IMG/VR virus record: IMGVR_UViG_3300038393_003049 | Location: 6,167 to 70,166 of that record | From: a virus | Lineage: Duplodnaviria > Caudoviricetes | Strand: one strand, 5' to 3' | DNA length: 64,000 nt | Shown here: piece after piece, positions 55,171 through 64,000 of the stretch | Layout of the letters: each line of letters opens with the position of its first letter | Numbering within the stretch: the stretch's first letter is position 1 | Notes under the pieces: model-generated | The model's input: the letters and a program-made list of their open reading frames with translations, nothing else | Told to the model about the DNA's origin: nothing | The model's database searches: none | Program-made: the position numbers and the translations under genes

Positions 55171-55704
55171 GTGCCAACCGGCTTCCACCCGGTCCGCGAT
55201 CTGGACGCCAAGGTCGCGGCACTGGTCGCGCCGAAGGTCGAGCAGGTGGCCAAGCGGGTTGCCCGGCGGGCGAAGTCGCCGGGATACGCGCCGCCGACGA
55301 AGGCGTGGGTGTCCGTCGGCGACGAGCGCGTCCGCCCCGAGCATCGCACCACTGAACGGGACAACCCTTCGGTGCCGGCGAACCTGCGATTCAAGGTGAC
55401 GACCAACCGGTGGGAGGTCGAGCACCGCGGCCGGCCTGAGCGCCAACTCGCTCATGCTCCGCGCGACCCGGCGTTGAGCGTCGGCACGCGAATCAACTGT
55501 CGGTGCAAGTCAGTGCAGGACGTCGAGGGGATCCGGCGGACCATCGAGGCGCTGCCGGCGCAGGTGCACGGGTCCACCGTCGCCGCCGCTGTGCGGTGCA
55601 CCCACCCGCGGGCGGCCGGCGCCGAGTACGGCGAGGGATCCGACCGCGGCACCCGGTTCCTGGGTCGCGCGGTCCGTGACGAGGCCGCCCGGATGCGCGG
55701 CTGA
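55171..55704 (+). CDS. HK97 gp10-like neck/tail-completion protein with inserted MuF-like motif
   Basis: gp10-like AEYG..RGTRFL end; internal WVSVGDERVRPEH...INCRC. Confidence 0.55.
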   Translation: MPTGFHPVRDLDAKVAALVAPKVEQVAKRVARRAKSPGYAPPTKAWVSVGDERVRPEHRTTERDNPSVPANLRFKVTTNRWEVEHRGRPERQLAHAPRDPALSVGTRINCRCKSVQDVEGIRRTIEALPAQVHGSTVAAAVRCTHPRAAGAEYGEGSDRGTRFLGRAVRDEAARMRG

Positions 55705-55720
55705 GGCAGGAGGGAAGACC

Positions 55721-56089
55721 GTGACGCTGGTCGAGCACGCGGCCCGGGAGCTGGCTCGGACGAATGAGGATCCGGACGTCGTGGCCTGGTACTGCCGGGT
55801 GGTCGAAGCCTTCAGCAGCTTCGGGCACTCCGGCGGCTCGGCGGCGGCCACGATCCCGGTGCTGTTCGAGCTGCTGAACTACCGACCGCTCACGCCGCTG
55901 ACCGACGACCCGGCCGAATGGCTAGATAGGTCCGTGATGACCGGCCGACCGCTGTGGCAGTCGGTCCGCCACCATTCCGCATTCAGCACCGATGCCGGTC
56001 GAACGTACTACCTGCTCGACGAGGATGCCGGCGACGGGATCGCCATCGCTTCCCTGCATCGCACCGAGCCGAGCGGCGTTTCGTCGTGA
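55721..56089 (+). CDS. Conserved phage hypothetical protein
   Basis: GHSGGSA...PLTPLT..PAEW...WQS.R..SAFS. Confidence 0.6.
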   Translation: MTLVEHAARELARTNEDPDVVAWYCRVVEAFSSFGHSGGSAAATIPVLFELLNYRPLTPLTDDPAEWLDRSVMTGRPLWQSVRHHSAFSTDAGRTYYLLDEDAGDGIAIASLHRTEPSGVSS

Positions 56090-56273
56090 GCGAGAATCTG
56101 CCCTGGTCGTCGTGGTGGCAGCGCCTGACCTGGCGGGGCTGCCCGGTCAGGTACCCCGGCCGGTACTATCGCGGCCGGTGCGAGCTGGTCCGCGGGCACC
56201 CTGGGCAGCACGCTCTGGACCGCGGGATGGACGTTCCGCGGTGGTAGCCGGCCGCTGACCCGTTCGGGTCAAC

Positions 56274-56326
56274 TCTAAGGAATCTTCGAGAAACCCCTTG
56301 ACCCTCCGGCGGCCGGCGCGCATGAT
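56274..56326 (+). promoter_or_regulatory. Promoter of the tRNA array with upstream operator-like motif
   Basis: TTGACC (56298)-17bp-CATGAT (56321); TCTAA-GGAATC-TTCGA at 56274. Confidence 0.65.
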
Positions 56327-56346
56327 GGACGCAGCGACAACAACGG

Positions 56347-56420
56347 ATGGGCGTAGCTCAACTGGACAGAGCACTGGTCTCCAAAACCAGCCGTTGCAGG
56401 TTCGACTCCTGCCGCCCGTG
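56347..56420 (+). tRNA. tRNA-Trp(CCA)
   Basis: Full cloverleaf; CTGGT-CTCCAAA-ACCAG. Confidence 0.92.
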
Positions 56421-57560
56421 CGCACTACCGACCGGTTCCGAGAGGGCGACGACGGTACGTGATCGAGCATTGACAACTCCACAGCGGATACGAAGAAACT
56501 GCCGGGGCGCCATCCCCGGTCACCGGGCCATCGGCCCGGACAACTCTGGATCGTGCAGCCAAGCCCACGAACACCACGGCGCCGGCAGGACCGGCGCGCG
56601 GCCCGAGAGGCCACCAGGGGCGCGACGGCAGGCACACCAGAGCACATATCGGTACGACGATGGATCAAGCGTCAGGACGGCCTGCGGGTGGGAGCTTCCG
56701 TACGCTGCGCGAGCAGCGCGACGGTCCAGAAGGCCCGGCTGCCAGAGGTTCTGGTGCCCGCCGGAGACGGCGGGCGGGGGCCGTCCTGATCAAGGGTGGG
56801 GCGACTCGCCGTAATCCCACCGCCGGTTCGCCCGGCAGTGGTGCGCGGGAGACCGACCGACGCCGACCTCCAGGCCCTTCGGGTCGCGGGGGGACAGCTA
56901 GGCGACATGCGTGGATAACGCCGCTCAAACGACACTGTGGTGCGCCCACCCGCCCTGGCCCCGGAGGAGACTAGGAGGACCAGTCCTCTACATGGATGGC
57001 GGTGTGCGTGCACGCCGGGGCCACATAGAGCACGACCGCCGACGCGCGGGGCCGAACGCTCGGACCCCACAGCGGGCCGGTCGCCGGACGATCCGGTGGC
57101 CCCGCGCGAGGCGGCGATGGACCGGCGCGATGCCGAGGAACCCTTCTCGACGCCCTCGGGTGCATACGGGTGAAGGCCACTCCGCTGGTGAGACCGCGGT
57201 GACCAGGTCCCAAATCTCTCACCCGGCCGTGCCGACGGCCGACGCCCCACGGGGTAGGGACGCCTGACCAGCGTCCTATCGGAGAGCTGGCAGATCGGTC
57301 AGGCCCCTCGGGGAGACCACGATGGCTAGAGCCGGTGGGAAGGCGGATGCCCTCCGCGCCGCGACTGGCACTCAATTCTCGGAGAGGGGGCAGCAACCTG
57401 CGGATGGTCGGCCAACGACGCCCGCAGCGCCACCGACCAGTGGCGCCTCTCCGACGCAGCTCCGCGTGCTAGTCGCTCGTGCGCGGTGTGTAGACCTAGA
57501 AGCGACCCCGACAGAGCAGGCTCCGGAGTCCCGGGCGACCTGCGGGGTCATCCCGGGGTA
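56421..57560 (+). ncRNA. Candidate large structured ncRNA (GOLLD/ROOL-like context)
   Basis: ~1.1 kb with no convincing CDS, dense hairpins, flanked by tRNAs; boxA-like GCATTGACAACTCCACAGCG near the 5' end. Confidence 0.45.
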
Positions 57561-57561
57561 T

Positions 57562-57634
57562 CGAGTCGTAGCGCAGTTGGCAGCGCGCCGCACTGGGGGT
57601 GCGGAGGTCGTCCGTTCGATCCGGGCCGACTCGA
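57562..57634 (+). tRNA. tRNA-Pro(GGG)
   Basis: CCGCA-CTGGGGG-TGCGG; C1-G72, A73. Confidence 0.88.
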
Positions 57635-57743
57635 CGAGAGGGAAGGACGCGGGTTCGAATCCCGCCCGCCCGCACGAGCTTGGTAGCGCACCCGGGGCCA
57701 GGGACGGCCGCCCGCCTGGGGAGGCGGCCCGGCCACGGCGGGA

Positions 57744-57814
57744 TCAACGGTAGCTCAGCGGCAGAGCATCCCTCGGAAATTGAGACGGGAGGAGGGCGGC
57801 ACCCTCTCCGTCGC
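57744..57814 (+). pseudogene. Decayed tRNA (Phe-like)
   Basis: Intact TAGCTCAGCGGCAGAGC D-arm; broken anticodon arm and T-loop. Confidence 0.45.
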
Positions 57815-57898
57815 CGCCCGATATCCGCGGCAGGGCGGTTGACATCGGAACCTACGACCAGCGCGTTGTGCTGGCGAGACGGGACCGAATGCCGCACT

Positions 57899-57971
57899 AC
57901 CCTCGCAGCACGATGGACCGTGCGCTCGGCTACGGACCGAGAGGCTGCAGGTTCGAATCCTGTCGGGGGTA
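57899..57971 (+). tRNA. tRNA-Arg(ACG)
   Basis: CTCGG-CTACGGA-CCGAG; C at position 8. Confidence 0.88.
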
Positions 57972-58213
57972 CGCACCCGGGACTGGGCGGCACCGGCCCC
58001 GGAGCAAGGAGCCCACGTCGACTCCCGTGGGGGTGACCGTCAGCCTGACAGGACGGAACGGAGGTCGACCCCGCGACGGCGGGACCACCGACCTCCTGGC
58101 CCAGCGGGATGTGCCGTCCCTGGGTCGAACGGGCCGGGCGGCATGGTGCCCAGGGAGATCCTGGTGACGGGGTTTGTATCTCTTCCCTCACGAAACACCG
58201 CCCGGCTCGGTAA

Positions 58214-58286
58214 CGGGATATAGCTCAGTAGGCAGAGCGCCGGTTTTGGGAACCGGAGGCCCCAGGTTCGAGACCTGGTGTCCCGA
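58214..58286 (+). tRNA. tRNA-Pro(TGG)
   Basis: CCGGT-TTTGGGA-ACCGG. Confidence 0.92.
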
Positions 58287-58394
58287 CAAGCACCAGGCGC
58301 TGGCGCCTGCCAGCTCGATCCGCCCTCCTGGCAGGGGGCGGGACGCCAGCGGAGCTTCATGGCCCGGCCATCCTGGTTGGCCGGGCCGCTCGAC

Positions 58395-58466
58395 GGCCTC
58401 CAAGCTCAGGTGGTAGAGCGCCGCCTTGAAACGGCGGAGGTTTTGGTTCGACGCCAAAGGAGGCCA
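58395..58466 (+). tRNA. tRNA-Phe(GAA)
   Basis: CCGCC-TTGAAAC-GGCGG. Confidence 0.9.
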
Positions 58467-58736
58467 CTTGGAGAAGCGATGGGACGGACGGCCCCGGAGC
58501 ACGGCACCGAGGTGCTGCCGGAGGTGAGCCCGAACCCGGCTACCAGCTTGGACCGACCGGAGGCATACGCGAAGACCCAATCCGTGAATCGGCGGTACAC
58601 GGGATACGCGCGTCATGCGAGGGCGGCGGACCGATTCGCCTCACGCCCGAATGCCTCCGGGGAATCAAGGTCGCCTCGATCCAATGCGAGGTCGGCGCGG
58701 CGAGCGCCGGGACCGGTAGCGGCCGGGCTCGCCACT

Positions 58737-58807
58737 GCGGATGTAGCTCAACGGTAGAGCCGGTGCCTTCCAAGCATCTAGTGCGGGTTCGACTCCCGTC
58801 TTCCGCT
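58737..58807 (+). tRNA. tRNA-Gly(TCC)
   Basis: GGTGC-CTTCCAA-GCATC. Confidence 0.92.
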
Positions 58808-58940
58808 CGTCGGACTGACTCCGGATACTGTCCTGCGTCTCACACGAATACGTACTGTCCGGATGACTGGCAGGCAGACCCTCTCGTACCGCGAGGCGAG
58901 GGCCCCGGGTCTGCGGGGGTGGACACGTCTGCCTGCCTCG

Positions 58941-59014
58941 GCCGCCGTAGCTCATGTTGGCAGAGCGCACCGCTCGTAACGGTGAGGCGAGGGGTTCGAG
59001 ACCTCTCGGCGGCT
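58941..59014 (+). tRNA. tRNA-Thr(CGT)
   Basis: CACCG-CTCGTAA-CGGTG. Confidence 0.92.
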
Positions 59015-59193
59015 CAGGAGATCGCGTCCCGGTAGCTCCGGGTGAAGACCTATCGCCAGGGATAGCGCGATCAGTGGTGCTGGCTCAGTAGGCGAGTCCG
59101 ACCGAACGGTCGCGAGGTTCTGAGCGGTACCCCAAGCTCGGCGGCTCCCCGGAAATGTCGTACCCCCTTGGGACGATGTCTCCAGCAACGCAG

Positions 59194-59266
59194 GCGCCCG
59201 TACCCCAACGGCAGAGGGACCAGGCCGAGATCCTGGACAGTGCGCGTTCAACTCGCGCCGGGCGCA
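59194..59266 (+). tRNA. tRNA-Leu(GAG), short variable arm, C33
   Basis: CCAGG-CCGAGAT-CCTGG; A73. Confidence 0.8.
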
Positions 59267-59342
59267 CGTGCTGGCCGACACGTCGGGATCGCCCCGGCGG
59301 CGGGGGAGACCCGCGACGAGCGGCCCACGGATGGGATCAGTC

Positions 59343-60389
59343 ATGGCGACTGCGAACGGCCTCCGGCCGGCGAGCATCATCCCCAACATCGTCACCCACG
59401 TCGGCCTGGTGCTCGACGCCTCCAGCTCGATGGCGCGCCATCGCGACCGCCTCGTCAAGGCGGTCGACACGCTGGTCTCCCACCTGGCCGCCCGCTCTCG
59501 CGAGCTGGACCAGGAGACCCGGATCTCGGTCTGGACGTTCGCCGACCGGGGCACGTACCGGTGCCTCGTCTGGGATAAGGACGTGCTGCGGTTGCCGTCG
59601 ATCGCGACGCTGTACCAGACCGGCGGGATGACCGCACTGATCGACGCGACCTGCGAGGCGCTGGACGACTTCGGCACGGTCCCGACCAGGTACGGCGACC
59701 ACAGCTTCCTGGTCTACGTCCTGACCGACGGCCAGGAGAACGACAGCGTGCGTGCGCACGCCGCGCTGCCCGGCTACCTGACCCGGCTGCCGGAGGAGTG
59801 GACGGTCGCCGCCCTGGTGCCCGACACCAAGGGTGTGCACGAGGCCAAGCGGTTCGGCTTCCCGGCCGGCAATGTCGAGCGCTGGGATACCACCTCGGCG
59901 ACCGGCATCACCGAGGCCGGCGAGCGCATCCGGCAGGCCACCGACGCCTACATGACCGGTCGGGCGCGGGGCGAGCGCTCCACCCGGACGCTGTTCTCCA
60001 CCGGTTCGGAAGCGGTCAACGCCCAGACGATCCGGCAGGCTGGCCTCGTGCCCCTGCGAGCCGGCGCGTATCGCCTCTTCGAGGTCTGGGAGGACGCCTC
60101 CATCCGGGACTTCGTCGAGCAGCGAATGGCCGGCGCCGCCTACGTCTCCGGTCGCGGGTACTACGAGCTGACCAAGGCCGAGGACATCCAGCCGCAGAAG
60201 GAGCTGGCGTTCATGTCCAAGGTGGACCACAAGGTCTACGTCGGTCGGGGAGCGCGGGCGATGGTTGGGCTGCCGGACATGCACGTACGGATCAAGCCGG
60301 ACCACAACCCTGACTACACGATCTTCGTGCAGTCGACCAGCACCAACCGCCGGCTCAAGGCCGGCACCCAGCTCCTCTACATGGTGTAG
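59343..60389 (+). CDS. VWA-domain protein
   Basis: LVLDASSSM MIDAS motif, GMTALIDA, VLTDGQENDS. Confidence 0.9.
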   Translation: MATANGLRPASIIPNIVTHVGLVLDASSSMARHRDRLVKAVDTLVSHLAARSRELDQETRISVWTFADRGTYRCLVWDKDVLRLPSIATLYQTGGMTALIDATCEALDDFGTVPTRYGDHSFLVYVLTDGQENDSVRAHAALPGYLTRLPEEWTVAALVPDTKGVHEAKRFGFPAGNVERWDTTSATGITEAGERIRQATDAYMTGRARGERSTRTLFSTGSEAVNAQTIRQAGLVPLRAGAYRLFEVWEDASIRDFVEQRMAGAAYVSGRGYYELTKAEDIQPQKELAFMSKVDHKVYVGRGARAMVGLPDMHVRIKPDHNPDYTIFVQSTSTNRRLKAGTQLLYMV

Positions 60390-60436
60390 TGCGAGCGGCC
60401 CCGCCCGGTGCCTCCCCGCGCCGGGCGGGGCGTCAG

Positions 60437-60509
60437 GCCGGCGGGGCGCGAGTGGCAGCGCGGCCGCCCTGTAAGCGGAGGAGTGCCGGTTCGAGCCCGG
60501 CCGTCGGCC
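60437..60509 (+). tRNA. tRNA-Thr(TGT), C33
   Basis: GCCGGCG/CGTCGGC acceptor; GCCGC-CCTGTAA-GCGGA. Confidence 0.7.
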
Positions 60510-60557
60510 CTGGGCGCGACCACGGACGGTCGCGCGAGATTGCCAGGAGGCAGAGCG

Positions 60558-60680
60558 ATGAGCACGAACGAGGGAATGATCAACACTGGCGGGACGACCG
60601 TCATCACCGGGTCGGCGGTCGGCAAGGGCGCGACGGTCGTCATCGTCGAGGCCCCGAAGGACGGCAAGTCCGGCAAGTAG
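60558..60680 (+). CDS. 40-aa peptide
   Basis: AGGAGG RBS; MSTNEGMINTGGTTVITGSAVGKGATVVIVEAPKDGKSGK. Confidence 0.6.
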   Translation: MSTNEGMINTGGTTVITGSAVGKGATVVIVEAPKDGKSGK

Positions 60681-60689
60681 CCCGGACGG

Positions 60690-60766
60690 TCCGGGGTGGT
60701 CTGCTGGCAGGGCCGACGGGTCTTTGGTACCCGGTACAGACGCAGGTTCGATTCCTGCTCCCGGAG
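60690..60766 (+). tRNA. tRNA-Gln(TTG)
   Basis: CGGGT-CTTTGGT-ACCCG. Confidence 0.8.
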
Positions 60767-60796
60767 CAGGACGCGGCGCGTGCCGGCGCCGCACCC

Positions 60797-60871
60797 GCCG
60801 CCGTAGCTCATGGATGGCAGAGCGCTCCCCCGGTACGGGAGAGGCATCCGGTTCGACCCCGGACGGTGGCT
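60797..60871 (+). tRNA. tRNA-Thr(GGT), C33
   Basis: CTCCC-CCGGTAC-GGGAG. Confidence 0.88.
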
Positions 60872-61030
60872 CGCGCGCCCCTCACCCGAGGGCGACGTCC
60901 CGGCGTGGTCCCGGCCGGGCGCATACGGGACATGGCGGTGGGGCGGGTCGGAGGAGACGACGGCCACCCGCAAGTTGCATCGGCTCTGTCGTAGACATCC
61001 GGCGGGATGCACGACCCCCACCGCTACCTT

Positions 61031-61103
61031 GCGGCAGTAGCTCATCTGGTAGAGCGCCACCTTGCCGAGGTGGAGGCGGCGGGTTCGAGCCCCGCCTGTC
61101 GCT
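61031..61103 (+). tRNA. tRNA-Gly(GCC)
   Basis: CCACC-TTGCCGA-GGTGG. Confidence 0.92.
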
Positions 61104-61397
61104 CGTAGAGGTCTGGCTCGGCGCGCTGGCACGTGACCGGGCGGCGGACAGAATCCGTGCCAGCGGCTCTTCTCGCCCGTTCGGTGGTCCACTCCCCGGG
61201 AGGGCAGGAAGGGCCGGGACTTCGTAAGCTCGACGTACCCGACCGGGCGCACCCGGCGGGTGCCGGCCGCGAGGCGAGGTCGGCAGGTGTAGCCGGGGTT
61301 CGACTCCCCGGGTCCGGGTCGCGCCGGGCGGCCGGTGCCAGCCATCGTCATCTGCCGGGAAGCGTCACTACGTGAATAGGGCGTGCACTCCGGATCT

Positions 61398-61475
61398 TGC
61401 CTGCTGGGGGAAATTCGGCAGACCCTCCTGACTCTGAATCAGGGTAATTTCCGCGTTCGAATCGCGGGCAGGCAG
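61398..61475 (+). tRNA. tRNA-Gln(CTG)
   Basis: CCTGA-CTCTGAA-TCAGG. Confidence 0.85.
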
Positions 61476-61485
61476 CTCGAACAAG

Positions 61486-61570
61486 GCCCGAGTGGTGGAA
61501 CGCAGACACGCCAGGCTCAGACCCTGGTGCCCCGGCACGGGGCGTGCAGGTGCAAGTCCTGCCTCGGGTA
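61486..61570 (+). tRNA. tRNA-Leu(CAG), long variable arm
   Basis: CCAGG-CTCAGAC-CCTGG. Confidence 0.9.
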
Positions 61571-61616
61571 CGCGGTCGCCTTCCCGGTGGGAATCCGTGG
61601 GAGGCGACCCAGCAAG

Positions 61617-61698
61617 GCCGCCCTGGCGGAATGGCAGACGCACCCGGCCCAAACCCGGGCGCCCACAGGGCATGGGAGTTCGAGTCTCCCGGGCGGCA
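61617..61698 (+). tRNA. tRNA-Leu(CAA), C33
   Basis: CCCGG-CCCAAAC-CCGGG; long variable arm. Confidence 0.88.
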
Positions 61699-61790
61699 CG
61701 CTCGCTCGCGCGGACCTGAGACATGGTCCGGACGTGCTCCGCGAGCGACCATCAAGCCCCCCCCACCCCGTGGTCTGCGGGTGGGGCTCT

Positions 61791-61878
61791 GGAGGGGACG
61801 CACTCTCGGTGGGTGCAGCCGGCTGCTAACCGGTCGGGATCGCGAGGTCCCCGGTGGGTTCGATCCCCACTCCCTCCG
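61791..61878 (+). tRNA. tRNA-Ser(GCT)
   Basis: GCCGG-CTGCTAA-CCGGT; long variable arm; G73. Confidence 0.88.
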
Positions 61879-61995
61879 CAAGGTCGGGGCCGATCCCCGC
61901 CACCCGAGGTGACCATCGTTGCAGTCTCGGCCCGGACGCGGGTCCTGGCGGCGATCGTCGCGGGTGCGGCGGACCCTGGTCCGCCCCGACCCCCA

Positions 61996-62070
61996 TCCCC
62001 GGTAGCACAGTCCGGTCAGTGCAGCCGCCTGATACGCGGCAGATCAGTGGTTCAAATCCACTCCGGGGGA
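61996..62070 (+). tRNA. tRNA-Ile(GAT)
   Basis: GCCGC-CTGATAC-GCGGC. Confidence 0.9.
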
Positions 62071-62081
62071 CGCAGTTCGAC

Positions 62082-62154
62082 GGCCCGTTCGACCAGCGGT
62101 CCAGGTCTCCGGCCCCTCAAGCCGGCAGCGCGGGTTCAAATCCCGCACGGGCTA
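62082..62154 (+). tRNA. tRNA-Glu(CTC), C33
   Basis: CCGGC-CCCTCAA-GCCGG. Confidence 0.88.
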
Positions 62155-62252
62155 CTATCCCTCTGGCTGGATCAAGAGCCAGGCGACCCCCGGTGGCGGG
62201 ACGGTGTGCGCTATAGGTCACATTCGATCGACGAAGGCGTACGCGGCTACTT

Positions 62253-62324
62253 GCCTCGCTAGCTCAGTGGCAGAGCAGCCGACTCTTAATCGGCGAGTCC
62301 GGGGTCCGATTCCCTGGCGGGGCA
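62253..62324 (+). tRNA. tRNA-Lys(CTT)
   Basis: GCCGA-CTCTTAA-TCGGC; T-loop TCCGATT. Confidence 0.88.
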
Positions 62325-62347
62325 CGTAAGGATGGCATCGTGTCAAG

Positions 62348-62749
62348 ATGCCCACGATGCCGAAGGAGTACGCGCGGACGTATCATCTCGCGCGGTACCA
62401 TCGCCGCCGCGCAGCGGCGATTGAGTTCCTTGGTGGTTGCTGCATGAACTGCGGCATTACGGAGGACTTGCAGATTGACCATATTGATCCAGCCACCAAA
62501 CTGCTTGAGATGAGCAAGCTTTGGGGAGTCTCTGAACCCCGATTCTGGGTCGAGGTCGAGAAGTGTCAGCTTCTCTGCCGTTCGCACCATATCGCGAAGA
62601 CTACCGCTGAGCAGATGACTCAGGAGCACGGCACATGGGCATGGGCTGGAAAGAGGAAGTGCCCGTGCGGCAAGTGTCGCGCGTTCATTAACACGTACCA
62701 GCGGGAGTACAAACGCGCTCGTCGTAAGGCCCTATCGTCTATGGGTTAG
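62348..62749 (+). CDS. HNH endonuclease
   Basis: GGCCMNCG...LQIDHIDP...CQLLCRSHH; lower GC; 3' end overlaps tRNA-Glu. Confidence 0.88.
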   Translation: MPTMPKEYARTYHLARYHRRRAAAIEFLGGCCMNCGITEDLQIDHIDPATKLLEMSKLWGVSEPRFWVEVEKCQLLCRSHHIAKTTAEQMTQEHGTWAWAGKRKCPCGKCRAFINTYQREYKRARRKALSSMG

Positions 62750-62802
62750 GATCTCGGGCCTTCATCCCGGGGGACAGGGTTCGAGTCCCTGTGGGGCTAC
62801 CA
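62728..62802 (+). tRNA. tRNA-Glu(TTC), C33, encoded CCA
   Basis: TCGGG-CCTTCAT-CCCGG; ends ACCA. Confidence 0.82.
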
Positions 62803-62836
62803 AGCCCTGCCGGCATTCCTCAGCCGGCAGACGCCA

Positions 62837-62921
62837 GGAGGGTGCAGCCGGGGCTGGTCCCGGCGCCGGTCTCGAAAACCGGTCTGGTGCAAGCCAGGGA
62901 GTTCGACTCTTCCACCCTCTG
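62837..62921 (+). tRNA. tRNA-Ser(CGA)
   Basis: CCGGT-CTCGAAA-ACCGG; long variable arm. Confidence 0.88.
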
Positions 62922-63082
62922 CGTGTGGGTCAGCTCCAGACTGGCCCCTAGTGCGGCGTTGTCCCGGCCGTGCACCCCACGGGGCAGAGGTAGGCGTGGA
63001 CAGCCGCGTAACGACCGAGGAGATTCCGGCGGGCTGGTTGGCCGGAAATCCAGGTGCCATCTTCTCGGTGGTCTGCCTCTTC

Positions 63083-63158
63083 GCCCGTGTAGCTCAGCGG
63101 ATAGAGCGCCGGTTTCCGGAACCGGGGGTCGCACGTTCAAATCGTGCTACGGGCACCA
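63083..63158 (+). tRNA. tRNA-Arg(CCG), encoded CCA
   Basis: CCGGT-TTCCGGA-ACCGG. Confidence 0.92.
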
Positions 63159-63159
63159 A

Positions 63160-63236
63160 GGCGGGTAGGAGCACTGGTCGTGCTCGACAGCCCCATAAGC
63201 TGAGACAGGTCGGTTCGATTCCGACACCCGCTACCA
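63160..63236 (+). tRNA. tRNA-Met(CAT), C33, encoded CCA
   Basis: CAGC-CCCATAA-GCTG. Confidence 0.82.
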
Positions 63237-63237
63237 T

Positions 63238-63321
63238 TGGCAGGGGCCGACCGTTGGCGAGTCGGGTCTGACTGTTAATCAGGTGCGAAAGCTACCGTGG
63301 GTTCGAGTCCCACCCTGCCAG
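63238..63321 (+). tRNA. tRNA-Asn(GTT) with extended variable arm
   Basis: TCTGA-CTGTTAA-TCAGG; variable region TGCGAAAGCTAC. Confidence 0.78.
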
Positions 63322-63454
63322 CGTAGCCCTGCCGGCGCCTCGCGAGAGGGCAAGGGCGCAGCGATCCCAACCGGTAACGGTCGCTGTTTCATGCACGGGA
63401 TGGAGGCCACCCCTGCCAGCGTGCATCGAGGACAGACCGTAGTGGGGTGGCACC

Positions 63455-63528
63455 GGGCCGCTAGCTCCAATTGGTAGAGCGTCTTCCTTGCAAGAAGAGG
63501 GTTGAGAGTTCGAATCTCTCGCGGTCCA
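63455..63528 (+). tRNA. tRNA-Ala(TGC)
   Basis: TCTTC-CTTGCAA-GAAGA; G3:U70. Confidence 0.93.
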
Positions 63529-63532
63529 CTTT

Positions 63533-63606
63533 GGTCCCGTAGCTCAGATGGTCAGAGCGCCGCCCTGTCACGGCGGAGGCCGCCGGTTCGAGGCCGGTCG
63601 GGATCG
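63533..63606 (+). tRNA. tRNA-Asp(GTC)
   Basis: CCGCC-CTGTCAC-GGCGG. Confidence 0.93.
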
Positions 63607-63683
63607 CAAGGAGGTGAAGGGTTCGAGTCCCGGGTGTGGCCGGAAGGCCGCGCCTATGCGGCTGGGCGGTCGCCACCTTCGAA

Positions 63684-63755
63684 GCCCGGATAGCTCAGCG
63701 GGAGAGCTGCGCCCCTACAAGGCGATGGTCGCTGGTTCAAATCCAGCTCCGGGTA
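63684..63755 (+). tRNA. tRNA-Val(TAC), C33
   Basis: CGCC-CCTACAA-GGCG. Confidence 0.87.
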
Positions 63756-63758
63756 CGC

Positions 63759-63829
63759 GCGGGAGGATCACGTTCGAGTCGTGTGCCGGGCACCGGTCCC
63801 GGTGTTGGTGTAAGCGGCAGCACACCCGC
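63759..63829 (+). other. Circularly permuted tRNA-like fold (3' half precedes 5' half)
   Basis: GCGGG, T-arm, GCCGGG-loop-CCCGGT, D-arm, CCCGC. Confidence 0.45.
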
Positions 63830-63834
63830 CACCT

Positions 63835-63906
63835 CGTCTCGTAGCTCAGCGGCAGAGCGCCCGCTCGACACGCGGATGCGCGGAGGTTCGAGTCCTCCCG
63901 GGACGA
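63835..63906 (+). tRNA. tRNA-Val(GAC), C33
   Basis: CCGC-TCGACAC-GCGG. Confidence 0.87.
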
Positions 63907-64000
63907 CGGGACAGTCCATGCCGGGACGTCTCATCGCGGTGGGCCGCCCGGGCCCCCGCGGGCCCCCCCCCCAACCCCCAGGGCCGCCCAGCGAAAGGCC

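Follow-up and report, generated by a model that had tools for sequence, protein, structure and literature searches.

A boxA-like leader of the rRNA-operon type and a lineage-specific non-coding spacer at the head of a phage tRNA array

Introduction

Long tRNA arrays of phages give rise to structured RNA that stays untranslated over kilobases, and Rho terminates transcripts of this kind. What defines GOLLD and ROOL, two families of large RNAs found beside phage tRNA genes, is a widely conserved architecture with covariation. The boxA element is known from E. coli to contact NusB with its U-rich 5′ part. Its consensus has been given as UGCUCUUUAACA for E. coli and AUGAUCUUUGAAA for B. subtilis (PMC13753749), and the CL2 element in the rrn leaders of mycobacteria has been described as a putative BoxA antitermination element (PMC10218544). 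BoxA-type Nus antitermination also operates outside of rRNA operons, namely in lambda nut and in the leaders of suhB and CRISPR arrays in gamma-proteobacteria (PMC5725501, PMC13753749). BoxA elements outside of rRNA are already known, and we do not describe a new RNA class here. In the library of papers searched, we found none that connects boxA with tRNA arrays of phages, and searching for the motif string returned nothing relevant.

Here, we analyze the head of the tRNA array of a soil phage, in which the first two tRNA genes are separated by more than 1 kb. According to our preferred reading, to which we assign a probability of about 0.55, the tRNA operon is headed by an antitermination leader of the Nus/boxA type, followed by a lineage-specific transcribed spacer.

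Results and Discussion

Organization of the tRNA array

The locus is located on a viral contig from IMG/VR (70,166 bp, about 70% GC), which is rated as 48% complete by CheckV; the window, i.e., the whole stretch of DNA analyzed here, comprises 64,000 nt. An array of 27 tRNA genes was predicted by ARAGORN on the + strand (56347-63907). The first two tRNA genes and the site preceding them are as follows:

56298..56326, + strand: promoter-like site TTGACC-17 nt-CATGAT, 20 nt 5′ of tRNA-Trp, a consensus match only
56347..56421, + strand: tRNA-Trp (CCA), gene 1 of the array, called by ARAGORN and recognized by the Rfam tRNA model with 60.7 bits
57562..57635, + strand: tRNA-Pro (GGG), gene 2 of the array, called by ARAGORN and recognized by the Rfam tRNA model

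The Trp-Pro gap (56422-57561) amounts to 1,140 nt, compared to 100-270 nt for the neighboring inter-tRNA spacers. The promoter-like site is the sole sigma70-like match in 55600-60600, where 0.3 are expected. It is not kept in the related phages described below, which carry a terminator-like hairpin at this place and no clear -35 element. As a further candidate, TTGACA at 56470 was considered as a -35 box and dropped because an acceptable -10 element is missing downstream.

A gene coding for a MuF-like head protein is present just 5′ of the array, and the gene directly upstream of the tRNA array (55676-56089, + strand) codes for a Tad3-family anti-Thoeris protein, an inhibitor of type I Thoeris (Pfam PF25185, E = 1.7e-27; phrog_14697). 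For a structural protein of 460 aa, closer relatives were not found in IMG/VR. Within the array, a gene at 59268-60389 (+ strand) codes for a VWA-domain protein (phrog_26613). This protein has thousands of homologues, and many IMG/VR contigs place them in or beside large tRNA arrays; the association of the VWA gene with tRNA arrays is conserved.

Coding potential of the Trp-Pro gap

The initial annotation had described 1.1 kb without any ORF of phage codon bias behind a promoter and tRNA-Trp, and our coding tests agree with this description, as does the promoter-like site. GC is distributed flatly over the three codon phases throughout 56250-59250, while the flanking genes reach 0.83-0.96 in one phase. 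The ORFs of at least 50 aa in the gap all showed negative codon log-likelihoods (-0.09 to -0.50, compared to +0.32 to +0.51 for the flanking genes) and flat GC, and the period-3 signal of the gap was at z = -0.3, compared to values of 8, 11, and 46 in three genes. The five longest of these ORFs matched neither Pfam nor PHROG families and had no tblastn match in 50,697 phage records.

The same annotation had also reported the absence of a ribosome-binding site, which is correct only in part: the motif GGGGAGA is present 5 nt upstream of an ATG at 57322, but the respective ORF (57322-57753) crosses the tRNA-Pro gene and has negative coding scores. This GGAG-like motif, together with a weak period-3 signal in the sub-window 57237-57536 (z = 3.2), might be taken to indicate that the gap encodes small or unusual proteins missed by codon-bias tests. 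Faced with an ORF that runs across a tRNA gene, codon scores that are negative throughout, GC that is flat at the three codon positions, the missing period-3 signal of the whole region, and the lack of matches in the Pfam, PHROG, and tblastn searches, we regard such proteins as extremely improbable. The Trp-Pro gap is non-coding.

The boxA-like leader

Two elements reminiscent of a bacterial rrn leader were recognized directly behind tRNA-Trp:

56426..56461, + strand: leader hairpin with CCGAGAGGG (56438-56446; CC-GAGA-GG tetraloop), derived from alignment and fold, the counterpart of the Streptomyces rrn-leader hairpin
56470..56486, + strand: boxA/CL2-like core TTGACAACTCCACAGCG, identical in 15/17 positions to the actinobacterial rrn-leader core TTGAGAACTCAACAGCG

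The core is the sole site in the 64 kb that is within three mismatches of the actinobacterial 17-mer, with 0.08 expected; it begins 49 nt past the first tRNA, shares its strand with all 27 tRNA genes, and is preceded by the CCGAGAGGG motif at a distance of 23 nt. Taken by itself, the hairpin segment does not fold better than expected by chance (z = 0.29). A resemblance of 56467-56486 to the boxA sequences of actinobacterial rRNA leaders had been noted before, and it stands: the 20-mer is present, and the match of its 17-nt core is far from chance and positionally conserved, the U-rich 5′ half being different.

Scanning GTDB with TTGAGAACTCAAYAGYGTG yielded only Actinomycetota among the matches listed. 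In the 47 loci with a 16S gene among these matches, the motif was located at a median distance of 197 nt (range 102-251) 5′ of the 16S 27F site, indicating that it belongs to the rrn leader. In our own alignment to the consensus sequences of E. coli and B. subtilis, which sets the register, the actinobacterial boxA proper reads YGUUSYUUGAGAA and is composed of the 8 nt before the core and the start of the core. The combination CCGAGAGGG-N18-28-TTGAGAACTCAACAG was found almost only in rrn leaders of Streptomyces (about 96% of the matches listed); for the core alone, Streptomyces or Kitasatospora accounted for about one third of the matches listed. Judging by these motifs, the leader of the window would mimic or derive from an rrn leader of the Streptomyces type. 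Together with the GC content of 70%, this leader gives a clue to the host, pointing to a Streptomyces-like one.

In the window, the boxA region has diverged in its U-rich 5′ half, which reads TCGAGCA in the alignment and matches neither the GTGTTTC of the related phages nor the GTCCGTTCC of Streptomyces. Because this is the half which contacts NusB by analogy to E. coli, the boxA-like element of the window may be weakened or non-functional.

The arrangement resembles the rrn leaders of Actinomycetota, and especially of Streptomyces, with their boxB-like hairpin and boxA/CL2, by the 17-nt core with 15/17 identities and the CCGAGAGGG hairpin, which is 23-25 nt upstream in both cases, and by its location on the transcribed strand within the 5′ leader of a long untranslated structured unit; in the window, it is placed on the sense strand in the 5′ part of a predicted long untranslated transcription unit. 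It differs from them in the diverged U-rich half and in its context, since the phage element heads a tRNA array and follows a tRNA, whereas the rrn element is promoter-proximal and 5′ of 16S. As in lambda nut, suhB, or the CRISPR arrays, protection against Rho would be conferred on a long transcript, untranslated or of phage origin, by a short RNA element. In contrast to these systems, the host phylum would be Actinomycetota, the consensus is another one, the cargo is a tRNA array, and the reading invokes no phage N-like protein.

Close to the 3′ side of this core, the - strand carries a terminator-like hairpin, CCGGGGATGGCGCCCCGG, with CAGTTTCTTC behind it (56502-56519). Terminator-like sites are not above chance, with 3 found compared to 1.4 expected.

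Array heads of related phages

We gathered 160 related loci from IMG/VR and JGI metagenomes by aligning the closest VWA homologues, and 173 loci were searched in all. The contigs carrying the very closest VWA homologues (P0002-P0007, 66-70% identity, one of them on a 148-kb JGI contig) are outside of this set. Five to seven of the loci gathered are syntenic to the window (L016, L017, L018, L022, L075, L096, and L103), exhibiting the order tRNA-Trp, Pro, Ala, Phe, and VWA gene. In these relatives, tRNA-Trp and the tRNA after it are only 89-276 nt apart, at the place occupied by 1.1 kb in the window.

Related leaders were present on at least seven contigs, namely those just listed, in the form of a small hairpin, GTGTTTC, and the core TTGAGAAYTYCACAGTG, followed by GGACAGCATGTG. 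The core is located 27-35 nt 3′ of tRNA-Trp in L016, L017, L075, L096, and L103, and 30 nt 3′ of a tRNA-CUA, which itself follows tRNA-Trp, in L018 and L022. Over 2.2 Mb of related loci, 10/10 sites within three mismatches were found on the tRNA strand and 0 on the opposite one, while shuffled sequences gave about five on both strands together. The exact 17-mer occurs on six contigs of IMG/VR, none of them with tRNAs, which is about the number expected by chance from our own estimate of the collection size.

Origin of the spacer

Behind the leader, the rest of the gap is occupied by a single feature:

56487..57561, + strand: orphan non-coding spacer of 1,075 nt, lineage-specific according to coding tests and homologue searches

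This part of the gap had been proposed in the initial annotation to represent a GOLLD-like or new large RNA. Rfam 15 detected only tRNAs in the whole window at the gathering threshold. At E ≤ 10, unrelated families were added to the tRNAs of the region 56200-60600 by four sub-threshold matches, and none of the four falls within the segment. No covariance-model match (E ≤ 10) was obtained for GOLLD (RF01998), ROOL (RF03087), RNase P, tmRNA, 6S, group I/II introns, or Y RNA. Six related arrays produced matches to the tRNA clan only, among the best 150 of 191. Searching the 173 related loci with the spacer by blastn, nhmmer, and tblastx gave nothing beyond tRNA matches or composition noise. No match was found in the whole genomes of five near-complete relatives, and no homologue in the phage database; 401 sampled genomes of Actinomycetota contained only chance matches of 33-65 nt.

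The spacer shares with GOLLD and ROOL that it is a large non-coding stretch beside phage tRNA genes, which is a matter of context and does not define membership in these families. It differs from both in showing no covariance-model similarity at E ≤ 10 and in being missing even in the closest relatives examined. The proposal of a GOLLD-like or new large RNA is therefore not borne out: Rfam has no match in the segment, homologues were not found, the relatives do not carry the spacer and in that sense show no conserved structure, and its folding is weak and strand-symmetric, as detailed below. This outcome tempers the expectation that a GOLLD-class RNA is present in every large non-coding gap beside phage tRNAs.

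Since the corresponding interval of the relatives measures only 89-276 nt and no homologue was found in the sets searched, the spacer is a lineage-specific insertion or expansion. It resembles ordinary inter-tRNA spacers in being non-coding, in its location between two tRNAs on the same strand, and in its composition: the contents of 17.8% A and 11.8% T equal those of the neighboring inter-tRNA spacers of 180-270 nt and are unlike the bulk of the genome. It differs from them by its length.

An insertion relative to all syntenic relatives might also represent decayed DNA, i.e., what is left of one or several former genes, of tRNA genes, or of a mobile insertion, with neither a coding signal nor a function of its own. 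Orphan tRNA pieces in the next spacer, between tRNA-Pro and tRNA-Arg (57644-57675 and 57748-57768), make gene decay plausible as a source of spacers in this array, and the arrays of relatives contain small genes in equivalent gaps. Still, neither protein remnants (by tblastx, tblastn, Pfam, and PHROG) nor tRNA-like remnants (in Rfam at E ≤ 10) were detected in the segment, terminal repeats or target duplications were not found, and the well-folded domain and the GNRA bias described below would not be expected from random decay. We consider this origin unlikely.

Both orphan pieces of this next spacer have the appearance of fragmented tRNA genes. The first consists of a T-arm and the 3′ strand of an acceptor stem (57644-57675, + strand); the second is a D-arm (GTAGCTCAGCGGCAGAGC; 57748-57768, + strand) about 70 nt past the T-arm, in a place where no tRNA was called. 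A permuted tRNA made of these arms was rejected, since the joined pieces gave only implausible ARAGORN calls.

Folding of the spacer

Relative to dinucleotide shuffles, the minimum free energy (MFE) of the whole region gave z-values of -2.5 (+ strand) and -2.6 (- strand), compared to +1.2 for a coding control. Windows of 150 nt showed a mean z of about -1.1, compared to a genome background of -0.54 (sd 1.5). The earlier description of many short GC hairpins is only partly borne out, since the excess is modest in relation to composition and equal on both strands. One part of the spacer is predicted to fold stably:

56668..56794, + strand: multi-branch domain of 127 nt with three arms on a closing stem of 13 bp; GCGA and GAGA loops cap two of the arms (predicted fold)

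Its MFE structure (-80.8 kcal/mol) equals the centroid, and none of 200 shuffles was as good (z = -4.93); the - strand reached z = -4.69. Four GNRA-capped hairpins were found on the + strand, where 0.72 are expected. They are clustered within 56690-56805, while the - strand has none; the p-value is about 0.016 before correction for four tests, which may be taken as weak strand-specific evidence. The folding z of -2.5, the GNRA cluster of the + strand, and the domain at z = -4.9 may hint at some RNA-level selection in the spacer.

These features bring up the question of whether the 1.1 kb could, entirely or in large part, be an orphan structured non-coding RNA of this lineage with its own function, i.e., a functional analogue of GOLLD or ROOL produced from an antiterminated operon. 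The non-coding segment follows a leader of the antitermination type on the transcribed strand of the tRNA operon, contains more A than T on the + strand, and combines the whole-region folding value with a 127-nt domain whose MFE structure and centroid coincide and with four GNRA-capped helices restricted to the + strand. In addition, the same phage is present in four other DNA runs from soil or rhizosphere, where short contigs are identical or differ by one letter, including a single SNP in the segment (56899 T>C); joints with sides of 21-24 nt were disregarded in assembling the reads of the four runs.

These points are opposed by the Rfam families, which gave no match at E ≤ 10, and by the absence of homologues from the relatives and collections searched, with 89-276 nt at the same position in relatives. 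Furthermore, both strands show the same folding excess, which stays within the spread of the background windows of the genome, and the composition is that of ordinary short spacers. The ends of the spacer are not joined by a closing stem, a candidate long-range stem between them being no better than in shuffles. Finally, a single-sequence covariance model of the best domain (R1) found no counterpart in the window and 39 related loci, the best E-value being 0.43. An orphan RNA of this kind thus appears quite unlikely to us. It is highly doubtful that the 1,075-nt segment, or at least the domain at 56668-56794, represents a new lineage-restricted functional RNA which would be abundantly produced from the antiterminated operon and serve, e.g., as a decoy or scaffold for a host factor of RNA processing or defence. 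As observed here, the spacer is a segment with one stably folded domain of 127 nt, not a conserved large RNA.

Proposed function of the array head

Under our preferred reading of an antitermination leader followed by a transcribed spacer, the phage tRNAs would be transcribed as a polycistronic operon of about 7.6 kb, with the interval serving as its untranslated leader and first spacer. The individual steps, from transcription and Nus recruitment to Rho resistance and the fate of the spacer, are modelled on what is known of rrn antitermination. The first ~65 nt (56426-56486), which are the only part of the gap that looks functional from its sequence, would imitate a Streptomyces-type rrn leader with a GAGA-capped hairpin and the subsequent core of the CL2/boxA region. 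As part of the nascent RNA, this element would recruit the NusB-NusE(S10)/NusG/NusA complex of the host, and RNA polymerase would then resist both Rho-dependent and structure-induced termination over several kb of structured untranslated RNA, following the same logic as in rRNA operons. The remaining 1,075 nt would be a lineage-specific expansion of the Trp-Pro spacer that is probably transcribed, set free upon excision of the flanking tRNAs by RNase P and 3′-end nucleases, and finally degraded.

Such a reading would extend the regulation by BoxA and Nus factors to phage tRNA operons in Actinomycetota. If a host rrn-leader signal has been copied to the array head and conserved throughout a family of soil phages, this would offer a testable answer to the question of how these arrays get fully transcribed.

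Further features of the arrays

A stretch with strong codon-phase GC periodicity (0.82-0.89 in one phase) at 60301-61050 (+ strand) overlaps with three of the tRNAs called by ARAGORN, at 60437-60510 (with a four-base 'gtaa' anticodon), 60690-60767 (Gln), and 60797-60872 (Thr). The Gln and Thr calls are missing from the list obtained with Rfam at the gathering threshold, and the three may represent either false calls within a gene or an overlap of gene and tRNAs.

In the related phages, a conserved stem AGTCCTGG...CCAGGACT is located between the boxA-like core and tRNA-Pro (L016, L017, L018, L075, L096, and L103). The insert between its two strands varies from about 16 to 110 nt, and the stem ends from a few to about 80 nt before tRNA-Pro, an arrangement that resembles an rRNA-like processing stalk. 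The stem reads AGACCTGG...CCAGGTCT in L016 and L096, an apparent compensatory change as read by eye. A counterpart of this stem was not recognized in the window. The arrays of the relatives also contain other non-coding-looking stretches of 0.5-1.1 kb. An 83-nt segment within the tRNA array of L017 (13948-14030) matched the tmRNA model of Rfam with 50.3 bits (gathering score 47) and is probably a tRNA-like element.

Some relatives carry a tRNA with the anticodon CUA, which is labeled 'Pyl' by ARAGORN and is of the amber-suppressor type. Its gene directly follows tRNA-Trp in L018 (8617-8689) and L022 (8213-8285) and is located further along the array in L017 and L075. These tRNAs may indicate read-through or recoding of TAG in that group of phages.
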